From: an uncultured Planctomycetia bacterium
GTDB lineage: Bacteria > Omnitrophota > Gorgyraeia > 1-14-0-20-64-10
DNA: 64,000 nucleotides
Assembly (NCBI GenBank): GCA_964373715.1
Contig: CAYJVR010000002.1
Location: 118,521-182,520 of the forward strand
Direction of reading: 5' to 3'
Under the pieces are notes generated by a model. It was given only the letters and a program-made list of their open reading frames with translations. It made no database searches and was not told the origin of the DNA. Below are positions 3,303 through 15,209 of this stretch, one piece after another. Position numbers and translations under genes: made by a program. The stretch's first letter is position 1, and every line of letters starts with the position of its first letter.

Positions 3303-3908
3303 ATGGTTCGGTGGGATGAAGGGATCGAGAGGGATCATGATATTTTGACGCATCAAGTCGATGCGCTGGAAGCGGCCCTGGCGGTGGATGTCACGGACGA
3401 GGACCGGAGAGTTGTGCTGGCATGGATTGTTCAGACCCTGTGGCCGGCTTTAGAGCTGCACCTGAGAAAAGAGGAGGAGGTCCTTTTCCCGGCGGTCCAT
3501 CGCCTGATCGGCGAGAATGCCGGGGCGGTTACCTTGATGCAGGAGGAACACAAAGAATTAAGAGATGCGCACCGGCGCTTGGCGGAACTGCTTCAGGTCT
3601 ATGAACACACAAATTGGGACGGGATCCGGCTGGCCGCCGAGTCGCTGATGGAAAGGTTGGAAGACCACAGGAAAAAAGAAAAGCGCCTCGTCCTGGATGT
3701 TCTGGAATACAGTTTAAAATCCAAAGAGCTGAAAGATCTTGTCAAGGAACTGGAAGAGGTAGCCCGCCGCGCCCACGAAGAGGAGGGGTGGCCCGCCACT
3801 ATTTTGTACAACAAAAGGGCCGTCAGTCCTCCCGGGCGCGGTTTAAATGTTCCGGATGAAATAGGGTATGGAAGCGTTTCCCATGAAATAACAGCGGAGA
3901 AGCCATGA
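3303..3908 (+). CDS. Hemerythrin-like (HHE cation-binding domain) protein. The ORF track starts it at 3231; I prefer the internal ATG at 3303.
   Basis: LELHLRKEEEVLFP motif and H/E-rich helices. Its stop overlaps the nirK start (ATGA at 3905-3908). Confidence 0.65.
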   Translation: MVRWDEGIERDHDILTHQVDALEAALAVDVTDEDRRVVLAWIVQTLWPALELHLRKEEEVLFPAVHRLIGENAGAVTLMQEEHKELRDAHRRLAELLQVYEHTNWDGIRLAAESLMERLEDHRKKEKRLVLDVLEYSLKSKELKDLVKELEEVARRAHEEEGWPATILYNKRAVSPPGRGLNVPDEIGYGSVSHEITAEKP

Positions 3909-4957
3909 AAGAAAAAAGGTTCTGGTTCGGGATAGCCGTAATGGCGATGAGTGCGGCGGGTATTGTTGGCTTAAGTTGTTCGGAGGTTTCGGCGGAGGTC
4001 TGGAAGCGTGAAAAGGCCCAGTTGACCTACGCCCCGGAAGTTCCCCCTCCGATCACCCGAAAGAGCCCAGCGATCGTGGAGGTCTACTTGGATTCCAGCG
4101 TCAATGTTGCCGAAATAGGTCCAAACGCTCAATATCAGTTTTGGGGGTTTAACGGCCATGTCCCCGGTCCGTTCATCCGGACGAGAGTGGGGGACATGCT
4201 CGAGGTGCATGTCAGCAACACCGACGTTAGCGGGATGCCTCACAATGTGGATTTCCACGCGGTGACGGGGCCCGGAGGTGGGGCGAAAGTCACCACGGTT
4301 GTCGAGGGGGAGAAGCGGACGGTCTGGTTCAAGATGCTCCATCCAGGGCTGTATGTTTATCACTGCGCCGCCCCTCCTGTGATGGACCATATCGCCAACG
4401 GGATGTACGGCCTGATTCTGGTGGAGCCCAAAGGAGGGCTTCCGAAGGTGGACAAGGAATTTTACGTCCTGCAGAGCGAGTTTTACACCAAAGACCCGGC
4501 GGAAGGCCAGGAGCTTCTCGAATTTTCGCATGACAACGGCGTTTTGGAGCATCCCCGATTTGTCGTGTTCAACGGCCGGGAAGGGTCTTTGACGAACGAA
4601 GGAACACTTAAGGCAAAAACAGGGGATAAGGTCAGGATCTATTTCGGCAACGCGGGCCCGAACCTCATCTCCTCGTTCCATGTGATTGGTGAGATTTTCG
4701 ACAATGTCTACCGAGAAGGGGATCTCGTCAGCCAGCCAGCCCACAGTGTACAGACGACGCTCGTGCCGGCGGGAGGGGCCACGGTGGTGGACTTCGGACT
4801 GGAGGTTCCTGGAACATACACTTTGGTGGACCACGCTATCTTCCGGATAGGCAAAGGGGCGGTCGGTTTCTTGGAAGCGGAGGGAAAACCCCGGCATGAC
4901 ATCTATGCGACCGAAGATGATCCGGAGCCGTGCGAAGGGTGTCTTGTCCATCCTTAA
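3905..4957 (+). CDS. nirK: Copper-containing nitrite reductase NirK (two-domain multicopper oxidase)
   Basis: Signal peptide; type-1/type-2 Cu ligand motifs HNVDFHA and YVYHCAAPPVMDHIANGMYG. Length of about 350 aa. Confidence 0.9.
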   Translation: MKEKRFWFGIAVMAMSAAGIVGLSCSEVSAEVWKREKAQLTYAPEVPPPITRKSPAIVEVYLDSSVNVAEIGPNAQYQFWGFNGHVPGPFIRTRVGDMLEVHVSNTDVSGMPHNVDFHAVTGPGGGAKVTTVVEGEKRTVWFKMLHPGLYVYHCAAPPVMDHIANGMYGLILVEPKGGLPKVDKEFYVLQSEFYTKDPAEGQELLEFSHDNGVLEHPRFVVFNGREGSLTNEGTLKAKTGDKVRIYFGNAGPNLISSFHVIGEIFDNVYREGDLVSQPAHSVQTTLVPAGGATVVDFGLEVPGTYTLVDHAIFRIGKGAVGFLEAEGKPRHDIYATEDDPEPCEGCLVHP

Positions 4958-6627: not shown

Positions 6628-7077
6628 TTATTTCGGATCTTGGGCGGAACAGGTTTTCTTCATCCGCCGGACGGAACGGACGATGGAGAAGGTGATGCCG
6701 CCGAAAAGAATGTAAGGGGTGCTCAGCAGAAGACCTAAGGAAAGCCCGAATCCGTTTCTCAAGCTGGCGGCGGCGGACGGGTCAGTTTGTCCGGCGGCCA
6801 CCTCTGTGCACATCGGGCACGCGATCGCCGCCCCCGCCATAAGAATAACCAGGGCAAAAACAGATAAAACAAGGCGGGTAACGCCCGCCAGAAATCTGCC
6901 TGCGGGGATGTCTCCGAGGGACGTAGGTCGCCGCGAACGGGCATGGATTCCCGAAGGGAAGAGTGAGCGAGACCTTCGAGCGCAGTCCGGAGCGCAGGGC
7001 CGGACAAGCGACCTGAGGAGATATTCCCGCAGGCAGATTTCAGTGACCGTTGTTTTTTCCCGAGGATGTTTCATTGC
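6628..7077 (-). CDS. Hypothetical small membrane protein with a CPMC motif at the distal end of the cox operon; start uncertain
   Basis: C-terminal hydrophobic segments (LVLSVFALVILMAGAAIACPMC, LSLGLLLSTPYILFGG). The N-terminal part of the ORF overlaps DUF420 and may not be real. Confidence 0.25.
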   Translation of the reverse strand, partial: AMKHPREKTTVTEICLREYLLRSLVRPCAPDCARRSRSLFPSGIHARSRRPTSLGDIPAGRFLAGVTRLVLSVFALVILMAGAAIACPMCTEVAAGQTDPSAAASLRNGFGLSLGLLLSTPYILFGGITFSIVRSVRRMKKTCSAQDPK

Positions 7078-7493
7078 CATTTCACCTGGTACAGCATCCA
7101 GTATACGACAACTCCGGTCACAGAGACATAAAGCCACAGCGGAAAAGTCCAGCGGGCGATTTTCTTATGGTCCGCGAACCGGTTACGGAGGGCCAGGTAG
7201 AGGGTTCGCAGGATCAGAGGGACGATTAAAGCGGCAAGGATTGTGTGCGTGATCAGGATGAAAAAATAGACCAGCCGGATGACTCCGGTCCCCTGAAAGC
7301 GGGTTGCCCCGTGAATGAAATGGTACGTCAGGTATGAGATGAGGAACAGCACCGAGACCAGGAATGCCGAACCCATCAGGTATCGGTGGAGCTGGATCCG
7401 GCCGCCGCGGATGGAGAGGTATCCTGCCGCCAGCAGCAGCGCGCAGGAGCCGTTGAGTAAAGCGTTGAGATGAGGAAGATGAGCCAGGCTCAA
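7071..7493 (-). CDS. DUF420-family membrane protein (typically associated with cytochrome oxidase)
   Basis: Four predicted TM helices and a His-rich HFIHG motif; sits in the cox operon. The family assignment is from memory. Confidence 0.7.
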   Translation of the reverse strand: MSLAHLPHLNALLNGSCALLLAAGYLSIRGGRIQLHRYLMGSAFLVSVLFLISYLTYHFIHGATRFQGTGVIRLVYFFILITHTILAALIVPLILRTLYLALRNRFADHKKIARWTFPLWLYVSVTGVVVYWMLYQVKWQ

Positions 7494-7738
7494 CGAAGGA
7501 TCTCGTTTGCCTCAAGGATAAGCGCTTGCACAGAGGCCGGATCGGAAGAGTCATAGGCGCCGACAATTTTTTCTTCCTGATCAACAAGGACGAACCGGAT
7601 GTTGTGCATAAGAGGGTCCTTCCTTTCCGGCATCTCGGAGACAGCCGCGGTTGCCGTCCGAGGAGAAAAACCGGCGCATAACGCGAAGGAGAACAGTCCT
7701 GCGAGCACCGCGATCGCCGGCAAATGATGCTTCCGCAT
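7490..7738 (-). CDS. Small secreted protein resembling only the C-terminal part of SCO1/SenC
   Basis: Signal peptide, then HNIRFVLVDQEEKIVGAY, which resembles the SCO C-terminal His + 'YLIDP.G.I' motif. It has no CxxxC and no room for a thioredoxin fold. Confidence 0.45.
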   Translation of the reverse strand: MRKHHLPAIAVLAGLFSFALCAGFSPRTATAAVSEMPERKDPLMHNIRFVLVDQEEKIVGAYDSSDPASVQALILEANEILR

Positions 7739-8035
7739 TTAGATATGGATCAGTGTCAGCCCCAGAAAAATCAGGAGGCCGGCCAGCCCGAGAAGGAAAA
7801 ACGGGAAGACCGCAACGGCCCATATCGGTATGAATTTCTCGAACTTCATATGCATGAAATAAAGGCCGACCAGGGCCGTCTTTACCAGCGAGATTCCGAG
7901 GATGATGAGGGCGATCCCTGTCCTGGAGATCGGCAGATAGGAGACAAACGTTCCTGCCGCCAGCAGTGCGATAAGAAAAGCCCAGATGACGAGGTACTTT
8001 CCGTAGTTTGGAACCGCGTGTGTTTCAGTGCTCAT
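7739..8035 (-). CDS. Cytochrome c oxidase subunit IV (prokaryotic CoxD/CtaF-like small subunit)
   Basis: 98 aa, three TM helices, position right after coxC, with an ATGA overlap. Confidence 0.7.
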   Translation of the reverse strand: MSTETHAVPNYGKYLVIWAFLIALLAAGTFVSYLPISRTGIALIILGISLVKTALVGLYFMHMKFEKFIPIWAVAVFPFFLLGLAGLLIFLGLTLIHI

Positions 8036-8619
8036 ATGAGGTACACCATGGGGAATAGAAAGATCCAGACGACATCCACGAAGTGCCAGTACAGCCCCGA
8101 GAGCTCAACGAGGTGGCCTTTCCTTTCGAAAAAATCCCTTTTCAGCGTCAGCGACAAAACCCACAGGTTTGCCAGAGCGCCGATCAGGACGTGCAGGCCG
8201 TGGATGCCGGTCAGCGTGAAGTAAACATCCCAGAACAGCCCCGTTCCAGGTAGGTGGCCGTGGTGGAACTTGACCGAATACTCGTAGCCCTTTACCCCGA
8301 GGAAGGCGCAGCCGAGCAGGATTGTCGCCAACAGAAACATCCGGAGTCTCCCGGTATCTCTGCGGTGCACCGCGGCCACAGACAGAGCCATGGTCATCGA
8401 GCTCGAAAGCAGGATAAAGGTGTTCACTGCCGCCGCCGGGACGTTCAATTCGTCGGCTGGATGGGGCCAGTGTGTGCCGGCGCGCAGCACGATATAGGCT
8501 CCCAAAAGACCGGCAAAGAACATGACCTCGGAGGCAAGGAACACCCACATCCCCAGCTTGGCGGTAGGAATGCCGGTTTGAGTTGTTTCCATCGAGTTTA
8601 CGGCTATGGTTGAACTCAT
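8032..8619 (-). CDS. ctaE: Cytochrome c oxidase subunit III
   Basis: GMWVFLASEVMFF, FTLTGIHGLHV and YWHFVDVVWIFLF motifs. Confidence 0.9.
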   Translation of the reverse strand: MSSTIAVNSMETTQTGIPTAKLGMWVFLASEVMFFAGLLGAYIVLRAGTHWPHPADELNVPAAAVNTFILLSSSMTMALSVAAVHRRDTGRLRMFLLATILLGCAFLGVKGYEYSVKFHHGHLPGTGLFWDVYFTLTGIHGLHVLIGALANLWVLSLTLKRDFFERKGHLVELSGLYWHFVDVVWIFLFPMVYLI

Positions 8620-8620
8620 T

Positions 8621-10414
8621 TTAGATCACCTTATCGAGTGTCATCGTTATTAGGATAACAGGCAGATACATGATTGAAGCAAGAAAAAGCCTCCGGGCCG
8701 ACACGTTGGATCGGGTCCAGGCGATTGCCAATCCAAAACCGAGGAAGGTCAGCCCACTGATCAGAGCGGTGAGAAAGTAAAGCCAGCCGGCTAGCCCGAA
8801 TGCCGCCGGCATGAGGCTGACCGGGATCAGTGCGAGCAGGTAAAGAACGATTTGCCGGCTTGTCAGATCTCCATCCGGATCCACGATCGGAAGCATCTTG
8901 AAATCGGCTTTCGCGTAATCTTCCCGGTAGGCCCAAGCGATCGCGAGAAAATGGGGAAGCTGCCAGAGGAAGAGGATCGAAAAAAGTATCCAGGCTTCTA
9001 TGCCGAAGGAGTTTCTTACCGCCGCCCAGCCGATCAGTGGAGGGATGGCGCCGGGAACCGCTCCCGCCAAAGTGCAGAGGGGGGATACCGATTTCATCGG
9101 CGTGTAAATGAACAAGTAGGACCCCGCTGTCAGCGCGGCCAGCCCGCCGGCAAGGGGGTTTGCCCCGAGAGAAAGGATCAAAAAGCCGGCAATCGAAAGC
9201 CCTATGCCGAAAACCAGCGCCGACCGGGGACTGAGGAGCCCCGAGGGCAGAGGGCGATGTTTCGTCCGATCCATCCGGCCATCTGCTTCCCGTTCCATCC
9301 ATTGGTTGAGGGCTCCGGAGCCTCCGCCGACCAAAGCCGTTCCGAAAAAAACGGCCAGCAGGAGGTGGGCGTTAAAAGAGGCCAACGGTGCGGCGAAGAA
9401 AAATCCAAGCAGGCTCGTCAGGACGGCCAAAAAGGTCAGCCTTGGTTTGGTCAGTTCGAGATAAGCGCGCAGAGGCCTGCCCGTCATGAGTGTGGGCTGA
9501 AGCGGCCGGACGATAAAACGGTAGACGGAGGTGGCTAATACGGCGCAGGCGGCCAGAAGGAGGGCCCCTACCGCCACATGTGCGGTGGCTGCTCCGACTG
9601 CGGCCCCCTGAGCAAAGGTGGTTATTCCTAAGATAATCTGAGCCATCAGAAGCCAGGGAAGCAGGCGGGCCGTTCCCTGAAGAAGCCTGTTTCGGCGGTA
9701 CTGCCGCAGGGTTGTCCCGGCAGTCCAGAGGATGCAGGCGGCCGCCGCGAAAGCCCCAGCGGCGTGGGCGCCGATAAGATCCGGCAGCCAGCCGACATGC
9801 CGGAGCGCAGCGCCCAGAATAAGTTGGAGGTAGACCGCCGCTGTGGTGAGAACAGCCATTTTTGCCAACTTCCGGCCTTCTTTTGAAGGCTGCAGGACCA
9901 TCCTTTCAGACAGCCAGGCAGGGGACAGTGCTGTCGCCAGTATAACGAGCGTCGCGAAGAATGCTTGTCCCAGGCAGGCATGCGCTATCGAAATTTCATG
10001 AGGCAGCTGCAGAAGAACGGTCAATCCGCCCAGGATCCCCTGGAAGACCACCAGGGCGAAAGAAACCAGCGCCAGCCAGCGGATAGTGCGGCGCCGTTCA
10101 AGAAAGAGAATACAGAGGGTTTGGGTCAGCGTCAGCAGGCCTACCGTGGCGGCGATCACCCGGTGGCTGTGCTCGAAACGGATTCCTCCCACCATCGGAG
10201 GGAAGAGGCTCCCGTAAGAAAGGGGCCAATCCGGGACGGCCAATCCGGAGTCGGTGGAGGTCACAAGCCCTCCCGCCATGACCAGGATGAACCCGGCTGC
10301 CGCTGTTAACAGGGAGAACCGGTACAGAAAAAAGGAACCGCTTCTGCGCGGCTGAGAAACGGATGTCCGGCTGGAATCTTTCGTGAGTTCTGTTGTTGCC
10401 CGCGTGCTGCTCAC
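8621..10414 (-). CDS. Fused heme A synthase (CtaA/COX15) and protoheme IX farnesyltransferase (CtaB/CyoE). The true start is probably the GTG at 10414 that overlaps the coxA stop; the 815-aa ORF in the track is an artefactual 5' extension.
   Basis: N-terminal half: GGLVTSTDSGLAVPDWPL plus multiple His-containing TM helices (CtaA). C-terminal half: YLELTKPRLTFL, GGGSGALNQWMEREADGRMDRTKHRPL, PPLIGWAAV (UbiA/CtaB). GTGA overlap with the coxA stop. Confidence 0.85.
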   Translation of the reverse strand: MSSTRATTELTKDSSRTSVSQPRRSGSFFLYRFSLLTAAAGFILVMAGGLVTSTDSGLAVPDWPLSYGSLFPPMVGGIRFEHSHRVIAATVGLLTLTQTLCILFLERRRTIRWLALVSFALVVFQGILGGLTVLLQLPHEISIAHACLGQAFFATLVILATALSPAWLSERMVLQPSKEGRKLAKMAVLTTAAVYLQLILGAALRHVGWLPDLIGAHAAGAFAAAACILWTAGTTLRQYRRNRLLQGTARLLPWLLMAQIILGITTFAQGAAVGAATAHVAVGALLLAACAVLATSVYRFIVRPLQPTLMTGRPLRAYLELTKPRLTFLAVLTSLLGFFFAAPLASFNAHLLLAVFFGTALVGGGSGALNQWMEREADGRMDRTKHRPLPSGLLSPRSALVFGIGLSIAGFLILSLGANPLAGGLAALTAGSYLFIYTPMKSVSPLCTLAGAVPGAIPPLIGWAAVRNSFGIEAWILFSILFLWQLPHFLAIAWAYREDYAKADFKMLPIVDPDGDLTSRQIVLYLLALIPVSLMPAAFGLAGWLYFLTALISGLTFLGFGLAIAWTRSNVSARRLFLASIMYLPVILITMTLDKVI

Positions 10415-12156
10415 CGAGGAGGGTTCCCCGAGGGTTTTTCCGTCTGGAGCTGCCAGTCCTTCTTCATTCCGGGCACGGAATATTCGTACGGCCCGCAATA
10501 AACGGTGACCGGCCCCGTGAAGTTGCCGTGAGGCGGGGGGGAAGGGGTGATCCATTCCAAAGTTGTGGCTTCCCAAGGGTTTTCCCCGGCCTTCTCCCCG
10601 CGGATCAGGCTCCAGAAGAAGTTCACCATGAAGATAAGCTGGGATGCCATCAGGCAGAAGGCGCCGATGCTCATGAGCTGGTTTAAATCTTTGAAATGGA
10701 CGAGGCCGGTGTACTGGGTATAGTCGTAAATCCGGCGCGGCATGCCGCCCATCCCTAAGACGAACATCGGGAACATCACCATATTGAAGAAGATGAAGGT
10801 CGGCCAGAAATGGATTTTCCCGAGCAGGTCGTTCATTTTCCGGCCGAACATCTTCGGATACCAGAAGGTAATGCCGGCAAAGGCGCCGAAAAGAGAACCG
10901 CCGAACAGGACGTAATGGAGATGTCCCACCACGAAATAGGTGTCGTGCAGGTACATATCCACCGGCGCGGAGCCCAAGAAAATGCCGGTTAATCCGCCGA
11001 TAACAAACATGGAGATGAATCCCAGCGCATGCAGCATCGGCGTAGTTATCCGGATGGAACCTCTCCAAAGCGTTGCCAGCCAGCTGAATACCTTGATGCC
11101 GGTCGGTACCGCAATCAGCATTGTCGAAATCATGAAGGTTGTGCCCAGCGCGGGATTCATTCCTGTCTGGAACATATGATGCGCCCAGACGAGGAACCCG
11201 ACGGCACCGATGCCCACTGCCGAGTAGGCGATCGCTTTGTATCCGAAGATCGGCTTTCGCGCGAAAGTCGGAAGGATGTCGGATATGAATCCCATCGCCG
11301 GAAGGATCATGATGTAAACAGCCGGGTGGGAGTAGAACCAGAAAAGGTGCTGCCAGAGAATAGGCTGTCCGCCCGCGTGGGCCGTCAGAGGATCGCCGTT
11401 AATGATCATGCCGGCGGGGAGGAAAAAGCTGGTCCCGAGCGTCCGGTCCAGCAGCAGCAGGATCATGGCCGAAGCGAGCACCGGCGTCGCCAGCACGGTC
11501 AGGATCGCCGTGGTGAACAAGGCCCAGATGGAGATCGGCATCCTGTGGAAGCTCATTCCGGGAGCCCTGTGGTTGATGATTGTGGCGATATAGTTGACGC
11601 CGCCGAAGATCGAAGAGAAACCGAGCAGGATTACGCCGGACACCCAGCAGGTTTGCCCCATTCCAGATGTCTCTTTCAAACCGCTTAAGGGCGGATAAGC
11701 GGTCCATCCGGTCGCTGCTGCCCCCCCTTCCACGAAAAAGCCGAACAGGACGATAGCCGCCGCGGGAACAAACATCCAGAAGGAAAGCATGTTCAGCCTC
11801 GGGAAGGCCATATCCGCGGCGCCGATCTTCAGCGGGATCAGGTAGTTGCCGAAGGCTCCCACCAAAAGGGGAATAATCCCGAAAAAGATCATGATCGAGC
11901 CGTGCATCGTAAAGAGCATGTTGTAGTATTCAGGCACCATCACTCCGCCCGGCATTCCTTCTGGGGCGATCTTTTCCATAAAACCCAACGGGGCGCCCGG
12001 CCAGCCCAGCTGCCAGCGCATCAGCATCGCCAGCAGGCCTCCCACCACCATGAACAGGAGGGAACTGATGAGGAACTGGATACCGATGACCTTGTGGTCG
12101 GTGGAGAAGATGTACTTCCGGATAAAACCGGGTTTCTGATGAGATGCGCTACTCAT
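10411..12156 (-). CDS. ctaD: Cytochrome c oxidase subunit I (heme-copper oxidase catalytic subunit)
   Basis: HGSIMIFF, WAHHMF, GGLTGI and HDTYFVVGHLHYVL motifs; 12 or more TM helices. Confidence 0.95.
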   Translation of the reverse strand: MSSASHQKPGFIRKYIFSTDHKVIGIQFLISSLLFMVVGGLLAMLMRWQLGWPGAPLGFMEKIAPEGMPGGVMVPEYYNMLFTMHGSIMIFFGIIPLLVGAFGNYLIPLKIGAADMAFPRLNMLSFWMFVPAAAIVLFGFFVEGGAAATGWTAYPPLSGLKETSGMGQTCWVSGVILLGFSSIFGGVNYIATIINHRAPGMSFHRMPISIWALFTTAILTVLATPVLASAMILLLLDRTLGTSFFLPAGMIINGDPLTAHAGGQPILWQHLFWFYSHPAVYIMILPAMGFISDILPTFARKPIFGYKAIAYSAVGIGAVGFLVWAHHMFQTGMNPALGTTFMISTMLIAVPTGIKVFSWLATLWRGSIRITTPMLHALGFISMFVIGGLTGIFLGSAPVDMYLHDTYFVVGHLHYVLFGGSLFGAFAGITFWYPKMFGRKMNDLLGKIHFWPTFIFFNMVMFPMFVLGMGGMPRRIYDYTQYTGLVHFKDLNQLMSIGAFCLMASQLIFMVNFFWSLIRGEKAGENPWEATTLEWITPSPPPHGNFTGPVTVYCGPYEYSVPGMKKDWQLQTEKPSGNPPR

Positions 12157-12811
12157 TTGCCTTGGTCTCCCTCAGCCAAGCTTCAAAATCGATCAAAGGT
12201 TCCGTCTTCACAAATCCCTTCATGCGGTAGTGGCCCAGGCCGCATAATTCGGCGCACCGGATTTCGAATTCCCCAGCCTGCGTCGCTTCAATCCAGACCT
12301 CATTGTTCATGCCCGGCACGGCGTCCTGTTTGATCCTCAGCTCGGGTACGAAAAAGCTGTGGATGACGTCTTTCGATTTCACGTGGACCAGGACAGGCAC
12401 GCCGACAGGCAGGTGGAGCTGGTTGATCGTCGCGATGTCATCCTCCGTGTTGAACTGGCTGTCGGGACCGGGGTACCGGACGTTCCAGACGAATTGCTCG
12501 CCCAGGAGCTCTATTTGCAGAGAGGTTGCCGGCGCGAATCTCGGGTACCGGATTTCGGCCCATACCTTCTGGCTGGCGACGGTCAGCAGCAGCAGAATGA
12601 CGGCCGGTATCGCTGTCCAGACCACCTCAATCAGCGTGTTTCCGTGGAGGTACTGGGCTTTTTTCCCCGGTTTGGCCCGGTAGATCAGGACAAAGGCGAG
12701 CAAGACTCCCTGAACCAGGAAGAAAAAGAAGCCGGTAATCCAGACGATGACCCAGAAAAGCTGGTCAACCTGGTGGCCGTAGCTGGAAACATTCGGAGGA
12801 AGCCAATTCAT
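12149..12811 (-). CDS. ctaC: Cytochrome c oxidase subunit II (CuA; no fused cytochrome c domain)
   Basis: Two N-terminal TM helices and a CuA site (HSFFVPELRIKQDAVPG...CAELCGLGHYRM). Confidence 0.9.
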   Translation of the reverse strand: MNWLPPNVSSYGHQVDQLFWVIVWITGFFFFLVQGVLLAFVLIYRAKPGKKAQYLHGNTLIEVVWTAIPAVILLLLTVASQKVWAEIRYPRFAPATSLQIELLGEQFVWNVRYPGPDSQFNTEDDIATINQLHLPVGVPVLVHVKSKDVIHSFFVPELRIKQDAVPGMNNEVWIEATQAGEFEIRCAELCGLGHYRMKGFVKTEPLIDFEAWLRETKANE

Positions 12812-12838
12812 GGAGGCGGTATCGGTCCTTGTATTGGC

Positions 12839-13594
12839 TTACTGGGCGGCCTTGAAGGCAAACGATACCTGCTTCGTTTCTCCGTCCGCCACCGTGACCG
12901 ACTGGGTCTGCGCGCCGAGCTTCTCGTGCCATGCCGAGACCGTGTAGGTGCCGGCCGGAAGGTTTGCCAAGCTGAACGATCCGTTCGCGTCCGAAACGGC
13001 GAAAAACGGGTTGGTTGTCACCACCGCGTGAGCGTTCATCCAGGGGTGAACGTTGCACTTGAAGGAGATACCCTCCGGCTGATCGAAACTTTTGGAGATC
13101 TTCATTCCCTTTGTCGGTTGGGCGATGTTGAATTTTTTGTTGAGCTTCGGCTGGCAGTTAACGTTATGGAGGGTCGGGTCGTTGTTCACAATCTCCAGCG
13201 GTTGGCCGGCCTGGATCGCAAAAACGTGCGGTTGGTAAACACAGCCGGTTTGGTTCAGCACGACCGGGGTCTTCGGGGCGGGGTAGGTCCCAGGAGCGAT
13301 CCCTTCCTTAATGTAGATGACGACGTTCTGGAGCTTTCCGCCATTGGCCAGCATCGATTCCTCCAAAACTGGGTCCTTGTGCTGCTGCTGGCAAGCCGGG
13401 TCGGCGTTCATCTTGATCTTCTGCATCGCGGGAGCGGTTCCATCAAAGGTGACTGTTCCGTTGAGGGATGAGGTTCCCGTCGCGGCGCGGGCTTCGGTCG
13501 CGGAACCGGCAGCCAATGCGGTCCCGGCGGCCAGTGCCAGCGCAAAAACAGTAAACCCGAACATGCTGAAACCGGACTTCGAAAGATTTCCCAT
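12839..13594 (-). CDS. Secreted cupredoxin (type-1 blue copper) protein with a C-terminal Ig-like / carboxypeptidase-regulatory-like domain
   Basis: Signal peptide; upstream His (LHNVN) plus a C-x2-H-x2-M motif (CNVHPWM); C-terminal SDANGSFSLANLPAGTYTVSAW beta-sandwich signature. Confidence 0.65.
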   Translation of the reverse strand: MGNLSKSGFSMFGFTVFALALAAGTALAAGSATEARAATGTSSLNGTVTFDGTAPAMQKIKMNADPACQQQHKDPVLEESMLANGGKLQNVVIYIKEGIAPGTYPAPKTPVVLNQTGCVYQPHVFAIQAGQPLEIVNNDPTLHNVNCQPKLNKKFNIAQPTKGMKISKSFDQPEGISFKCNVHPWMNAHAVVTTNPFFAVSDANGSFSLANLPAGTYTVSAWHEKLGAQTQSVTVADGETKQVSFAFKAAQ

Positions 13595-13652
13595 GTGAAT
13601 ATCTCCTTAAGTTTTTAGACAGTTATAAGCGCGTGCTCAAGAGGGTAAAACG

Positions 13653-15089
13653 TTACTTCAAGATGAAATTGACCCAGTTCGAGTTGGAGCGGCGGCGTCC
13701 CTGTTCCTGGTTTCCGCCGTCCCAGACCGTCAAGCCGATCAGCGTTGCTTCGCGGGAATCCAGAGCGACCCTGTCTTTTAATGAGGATTGCAATGGACGC
13801 TTCAAGAGCAGCGTCCACTGCCCGTCCGCGTAAGAGGCCTCCGCCGTAAGGGTTTCTCCCTGGGTTTTACCCGTTTCCAAGTCTGCTGTTCCCTGAACGA
13901 CAGCTTCCGATGCCCCGTTTTTACCGGCGGACCAGTAGCTGACATCGAGAGAAGGGGCGTCCTGGGAAGCTGGCCAGCTGCGCAGGGATCCGACGGTCCA
14001 TTTCATCGCCCGATTCGGCATAAGAATAATGCCGAGCGCGTCCGGGGGCGTCTGGCGGCTTTCGTCCGGATCATCCCACTGAAGACGAAAGATAACCGCC
14101 TCCTCATTGTACATCGCCTGGACGGAAACCGCATTCACGCGGACAGGCTCGATCTGCCCTTCCTTGTAGAGCTGGTTGCTCATCTGCAGGTCGGTGCGGG
14201 AAACCTGGCTCCACACCGGGTCTTGCGCTGTTTCCGGCAGACGCTGGCTCCGTTTCGCCTCTATCGTGCGGTTCCAGAGAGGGGCCTTCTGCAGGGAATT
14301 TACGTAATAGGCCAAAGCCCAGGCATCCTCTTTCGAGGAGATCGCGTCGGCGTAGGAGGGCATCGGGGTTCCGTCAATGCCGGTCATGATTCTCGTGACA
14401 ATCTCTTTCGGGCTTGATCCCCCCCTGTAGTTCCAGCCCTGCGTCAGGTTGGCGGGACGGATCGAGTTGCCCCAGTTATCCACCAGGGTCGCGGCGGACG
14501 GCCCGTCGCCGCGGCCGGCATTGCCGTGGCAGGAGGCGCATCCCAGCTGGGTGTACGACTCCTTCCCTTTGGCGATGCCGGCTTTTTCGGGACCGGGATC
14601 ATTCCCAAAGTTGACGACTTCCGGTTTAGAGTTCTCTTCCAGGAAGACGGGGGCCAGGCTTTTAACGAAATACACAAGCTGCCAGCGGGTTTCTTCCGGA
14701 AGCCTTTGGAATTCCGGCATCCGGCTGCCCGGCAGGCCGTTGGTGATCGTGTTAAAGAGGTCCTGGTCGGTCGGGACCGTGCCGCTGGCGGTGGTCCGGA
14801 ACTTGAAAACCCCTTCCGCGATATTTCTCGGTTTTGGGTCCATTTGCGCGGCGTCGGGGCCGTTCCCGGTGCCGGTTTCTCCGTGACAGCGGGTGCAGTT
14901 GGCGGCAAACGCCTCTTTGCCGGCCGCCAGATCGGGCGCCGGTTTGACGGGTGCCGTATCGGCGTAAGAGGGAATACTGCCGCTTGTCAGGATAAGCCAC
15001 GCGCACAGGCCGGCGAAGGCCACCGCGGCCAAGCAGGAAGGCTTTCGCGCCATTCCCCGATTCGATTTTAGGAAAATTGCAGGATTCAT
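13653..15089 (-). CDS. Dihaem cytochrome c fused to an EB_dh-like (ethylbenzene-dehydrogenase-type haem-binding / DOMON-like) domain; first gene of the oxidase operon
   Basis: Signal peptide/TM; two CxxCH sites (CTRCH, CASCH); C-terminal about 200 aa with YWSAG...TVWDGGNQEQG resembling the EB_dh fold. Confidence 0.7.
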   Translation of the reverse strand: MNPAIFLKSNRGMARKPSCLAAVAFAGLCAWLILTSGSIPSYADTAPVKPAPDLAAGKEAFAANCTRCHGETGTGNGPDAAQMDPKPRNIAEGVFKFRTTASGTVPTDQDLFNTITNGLPGSRMPEFQRLPEETRWQLVYFVKSLAPVFLEENSKPEVVNFGNDPGPEKAGIAKGKESYTQLGCASCHGNAGRGDGPSAATLVDNWGNSIRPANLTQGWNYRGGSSPKEIVTRIMTGIDGTPMPSYADAISSKEDAWALAYYVNSLQKAPLWNRTIEAKRSQRLPETAQDPVWSQVSRTDLQMSNQLYKEGQIEPVRVNAVSVQAMYNEEAVIFRLQWDDPDESRQTPPDALGIILMPNRAMKWTVGSLRSWPASQDAPSLDVSYWSAGKNGASEAVVQGTADLETGKTQGETLTAEASYADGQWTLLLKRPLQSSLKDRVALDSREATLIGLTVWDGGNQEQGRRRSNSNWVNFILK

Positions 15090-15209
15090 GGAAAGAGCCC
15101 CATTCTAACCGATTGAAAAGCCCCTTTCAAGCTCAAGACAGGGAAGTTTCTCACAAATCTTTTTTCTGGAAGGTAGAATACGTTTTGACCGGAACAAAAG
15201 GGGAGACCT

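Follow-up and report, generated by a model that had tools for sequence, protein, structure and literature searches.

The DNA analysed here (a 64-kb stretch, hereafter the window) carries ten ORFs on its minus strand, from 15089 down to 6628. The first encodes cytEB, a dihaem cytochrome c joined to an EB_dh domain; next come, in this order, genes for a cupredoxin, CoxB, CoxA, a CtaA-CtaB fusion, CoxC, CoxD, a SCO remnant, a DUF420/CtaM protein and a CPxC membrane protein. A check against the ORF list bore out the coordinates and gene order of the first-pass annotation, together with the three overlaps it had listed (12149-12156, 10411-10414 and 8032-8035). There are five overlaps in the operon, the last two (7490-7493 and 7071-7074) being of 4 nt each, and the remaining intergenic gaps are all 58 nt or shorter. 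The NCBI annotation of the contig (GCA_947085675.1, CAMTXI010000002.1) has these same genes and the order is kept in dozens of other genomes, which argues against a chance arrangement. The locus is, as originally proposed, a single operon for an aa3-type oxidase; it is tightly packed, real and conserved, the oxidase is of the A2 type, and the ten genes are presumably co-transcribed. Just 5' of cytEB lies a promoter-like site (TTGAAA-17 nt-TAGAAT, 15102..15130, minus strand) that agrees with the consensus at 10 of 12 positions and is proposed from this resemblance only; the region gave 4 such sites against 3.1 expected.

The first gene (13653..15089) encodes a protein of two cytochrome c domains and a C-terminal EB_dh (DOMON-like) beta-sandwich, as indicated by Pfam and NCBIfam searches, an AF2 model (pLDDT 83.5) and Foldseek. 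The EB_dh domain scores 63.1 bits against PF09459 (cut-off 33.3), and the same architecture is found in a family of at least 1442 members. The dihaem half recovered the dihaem cytochrome Kustc0457 (6h5l_B), a redox-partner protein of solved structure, by sequence with E = 1e-70, and Foldseek matched cytEB to the same chain with a TM of 0.78 and 42% identity. Foldseek further matched EbdC (2ivf_C, TM 0.70) and 7b04_C, and sequence homology to the gamma subunits of type II DMSO reductases was detected with E = 5e-15, while the NCBIfam scan gave 78.9 against TIGR03477, far under its cut-off of 169.85. The C-terminal part is thus a genuine EB_dh fold and not an ordinary cytochrome c fold, in agreement with the initial call. 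Both haem c sites, CTRCH at residues 65-69 (14883..14897; Cys, Cys and His) and CASCH at residues 184-188 (14526..14540), are invariant in 23 homologues, as are the methionines of GSRMP (14715-14729) and GTPMPSY (14352-14372), the respective candidate distal ligands. The sole hydrophobic segment is N-terminal (residues 16-40), with none at the C-terminus, and the protein is secreted or N-terminally anchored. Public annotation places its start at 15053 (466 aa) as against the 478-aa ORF from 15089, whose longer N-terminus (MNPAxFLKS...) is shared by homologues with 87% and 65% identity.

The EB_dh domain itself (residues 290-466; 13692..14222) departs from its molybdoenzyme-linked homologues at the two columns that supply the axial haem-b ligands of EbdC. 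The equivalent of Met108 is a valine in WTVGSL (13983-14000), in a part of the alignment that is gappy, and that of Lys201 is an arginine in GRRRSN (13683-13700), whereas the molybdoenzyme-linked forms have Met and Lys. At the Lys201 column an arginine is seen in 30 of the 35 cox-only loci. The earlier description of this domain as haem-b-binding-like therefore does not hold for the canonical ligands; the domain is probably haem-b-free in cytEB and its cox-linked relatives, judging from these columns, though other residues might still bind haem b. Given this loss, it is most likely a docking or scaffold module and not a redox centre.

The second gene (12839..13594) encodes a secreted type-1 (blue) copper protein, in which the cupredoxin domain is inserted into a CarboxypepD_reg beta-sandwich. 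Pfam detected both modules, Copper-bind only marginally (21.7 bits; cut-off 21.2), and Foldseek matched the AF2 model (pLDDT 84) to amicyanin, plastocyanin and, as the best match, a NirK domain. The first-pass call of a cupredoxin is borne out by the ligands, namely His143 in LHNV (13160-13171) and Cys180, His183 and Met186 in the loop CNVHPWM (13037..13057), all of which are invariant in 20 homologues. Furthermore, 70 of 70 homologues, drawn from all gene contexts, have the CxxHxxM motif with the spacing of amicyanin. Outside the type-1 site, M62, C68, H72, C118 and H123 are also invariant in this clade, and all 38 of its members have a DPxCxxxH motif.

Subunit II (coxB, 12149..12811; TIGR02866, 161.8 against 147.7) has, on motif reading, a CuA site CAELCGLGHYRM at 12221-12256 and a further CuA-site histidine in IHSF (12353-12364). 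A motif search found no CxxCH in it, which agrees with the prior statement that it lacks a fused haem c. Subunit I (coxA, 10411..12156; TIGR02891, 676 against 670.75) is of the A2 type. When aligned to the Rhodobacter sphaeroides subunit (1m56_A), it has YSHPAV (11317-11334) in place of the A1 motif GHPEV, so that Glu286 is replaced by Ala with Tyr-Ser just before it; D132, N121, N139, K362, the cross-link Tyr and every one of the six His ligands are kept. Likewise, in the A2 caa3 oxidases of Thermus thermophilus (2yev) and Rhodothermus marinus a Tyr-Ser motif replaces the helix-VI glutamate and the D- and K-channel residues are retained; unlike in these enzymes, subunit II here has no fused cytochrome c, the proposal being that cytEB supplies this function in trans, and subunits I and III are encoded by separate genes. 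The remaining subunits are a short CoxC (195 aa, 8032..8619; COX3) and CoxD (7739..8035; COX4_pro).

Between coxA and coxC, a single 597-aa ORF with a GTG start (8621..10414) fuses an N-terminal haem A synthase, CtaA (about 9485-10414; COX15-CtaA, 89 bits), to a haem O synthase of the UbiA/CtaB family (about 8627-9469; TIGR01473, 292.8 against a cut-off of 210.3), and this fusion is kept across the Omnitrophota-labelled loci. The DUF420/CtaM-type membrane protein (7071..7493; PF04238, 156.9 bits) is assigned a role in oxidase assembly after PMC9145763. CtaA-CtaB fusions, which occur in Deinococcus-Thermus too (PMC8239418, Table 1), and DUF420, that is CtaM, have both been described (PMC8239418, PMC9145763), so that the assembly genes, initially termed non-canonical, hardly deserve the term. 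The 82-aa SCO-like fragment (7490..7738), which matches a SCO1 protein over the final 40 residues of the latter, is indeed derived from SCO1/SenC but is a deletion remnant and not a special gene. What is left is the hydrophobic segment of the N-terminus and about 40 residues at the C-terminus, including a conserved His (LMHN); the thioredoxin core was lost, together with the CxxxC motif, through an in-frame 333-bp deletion with AAGGA microhomology at both ends. In L085, a relative with 87% identity, an intact SCO of 190 aa with CAGQC occupies the same position; the operon's SCO copper chaperone is thus inactivated by deletion in this genome. The last gene (6628..7074) encodes a small protein without a family match in the Pfam and NCBIfam scans, laid out as a hydrophobic segment, ACPxC (6808-6819), a periplasmic loop, a second hydrophobic segment and a basic tail; the CPMC motif, noted before, lies between the two hydrophobic segments, and at least 14 loci have the protein in the same place.

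Every one of the 33 Omnitrophota-labelled genomes that have 1.7 kb or more of sequence downstream has the block cytEB-cupredoxin-coxB-coxA, as do 11 Gemmatimonadota loci; the flanking genes vary, which indicates that the conserved unit is the block itself. In other loci the cytEB-cupredoxin pair adjoins bd-like (OR-N) oxidases and NXR-like molybdoenzymes, which fits a general role as periplasmic electron carriers. On the gene identities, folds, ligand sets and synteny described above, we favor, with moderate confidence, the reading that this A2-type aa3 oxidase operon encodes its own periplasmic electron-entry and cofactor-assembly proteins. The two secreted proteins encoded directly 5' of coxB would form a conserved two-gene electron-entry cassette, comprising a Kustc0457-type dihaem cytochrome c with His/Met-ligated haems and an amicyanin-like type-1 copper protein; their synteny, folds and ligand conservation suggest that they are partners of the oxidase. 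The claim that they are the electron donors is thus supported as to synteny, and the donor role itself is presumptive. Electrons would come from complex III, alternative complex III or a periplasmic dehydrogenase whose genes lie beyond the window, and reach CuA of CoxB through the cytEB haems c, the copper of the cupredoxin, or both; it is the gene order that points to CuA, and the direction and order of transfer are presumed. From CuA they would proceed to haem a, haem a3-CuB and O2, with proton pumping via the D and K channels of subunit I. Most A2 oxidases have a cytochrome c domain fused to subunit II (caa3), for which the cassette would in effect stand in. The distal genes would provide haem A through CtaA-CtaB, and assembly of the enzyme through CtaM/DUF420 and the CPxC membrane protein.

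An unlikely alternative, though the strongest of three, is that cytEB acts as an 'alternative NxrC', which like a gamma subunit would dock or anchor a periplasmic NXR-like enzyme of the type II DMSO-reductase family encoded elsewhere in the genome, in which case periplasmic oxidation of a substrate such as nitrite would be wired directly to O2 reduction without input from complex III. The protein belongs to the family first described in these terms in Nitrospina and Nitrospira (PMC3578206, PMC6606698), and its EB_dh fold matches EbdC and NxrC. In an Omnitrophota-labelled locus (L021, 47% identity) cytEB occupies the gamma position, following genes for a Mo-alpha subunit, an FeS-beta subunit and a NarJ-like protein, which indicates that the family is not oxidase-specific, and in two further loci (L077, L081) the cytEB-cupredoxin pair lies immediately 5' of the gamma-beta-alpha-delta genes of an NXR-like molybdoenzyme. 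However, neither the window nor the region within 10 kb in the 36 other Omnitrophota-labelled loci contains a gene for a molybdoenzyme, an FeS subunit or a NarJ-like protein, and the haem-b ligands of the molybdoenzyme-linked forms are lost here. From cytEB onward this alternative agrees with the electron-entry reading, the upstream donor being the sole difference. As regards the gamma subunits EbdC, NxrC, SerC and DdhC (PF09459/TIGR03477), cytEB shares their beta-sandwich fold but differs in falling below the TIGR03477 cut-off, in the replacement of Met108 and Lys201, in its fusion to a dihaem cytochrome and in having no adjacent alpha and beta subunits.

We regard as doubtful the possibility that the cupredoxin serves CuA (or CuB) as a copper chaperone or in site assembly, perhaps compensating for the deleted SCO, and not an electron carrier. 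Its gene is immediately 5' of coxB, additional invariant Cys, His and Met residues accompany the type-1 site, and SCO, inactivated here, is missing from the operon of another locus (L038); against this, each of the 70 homologues keeps a complete set of type-1 ligands spaced as in amicyanin, the gene also neighbors molybdoenzymes and bd-like oxidases, which are devoid of CuA, the PCuAC motif H(M)X10MX21HXM was not found in a motif search of the protein, and an intact SCO co-occurs in most loci. Least plausible is a primary service of both carriers to a neighboring copper nitrite reductase in denitrification, with an incidental adjacency to cox: NirK (3905-4957, plus strand), whose usual donors are cupredoxins and c-type cytochromes, and two hemerythrin-like genes do lie 0.8-2.7 kb past the operon end, as in L085, and a NirK domain is the best structural match of the cupredoxin, but NirK is on the opposite strand and is not kept beside the block in distant relatives such as L003, while the linkage to cox is universal in the clade.

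Among known systems, the rus operon of Acidithiobacillus ferrooxidans, with the order cyc2-cyc1-orf-coxB-coxA-coxC-coxD-rus (PMC8239418, figure legend), is similar to the electron-entry arrangement favored here in that an aa3 oxidase operon encodes its own dihaem cytochrome c and blue-copper protein as a periplasmic route to CuA. It differs in gene order and in that the window has neither an outer-membrane Cyc2 nor any c-type cytochrome beyond the operon, the cytochrome here has an EB_dh domain, the cupredoxin is amicyanin/plastocyanin-like, lies within a CarboxypepD_reg domain and gave no rusticyanin match in Foldseek, and nothing ties the locus to iron oxidation. An alternative NxrC and a cupredoxin have been reported as an accessory set of NXR and bd-like clusters of nitrite-oxidizing and anammox bacteria, namely Nitrospira, Nitrospina and Kuenenia (PMC3578206; PMC6606698, alt_nxrC_2), so that the pair is not unprecedented; it has so far been known only as unexplained accessory genes of nitrite-oxidizing bacteria. 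In common with the alternative NxrC, cytEB has a signal peptide, two CxxCH motifs and an EB_dh domain and is accompanied in the same way by a cupredoxin gene, and related loci match the published arrangement of a bd-like oxidase, two cytochromes c and then the fusion protein. In contrast to those clusters, the partner here is an A2-type haem-copper oxidase, with no NXR or bd-like oxidase in the window, cytEB lacks a C-terminal transmembrane helix and the canonical haem-b ligands, and the host is of an Omnitrophota-labelled lineage that is not a known nitrite oxidizer. A further likeness is seen in full-length homologues of 34-35% identity in Nitrospinota MAGs. These Nitrospinota proteins are named either c-type cytochrome or DMSO reductase type II haem b subunit.

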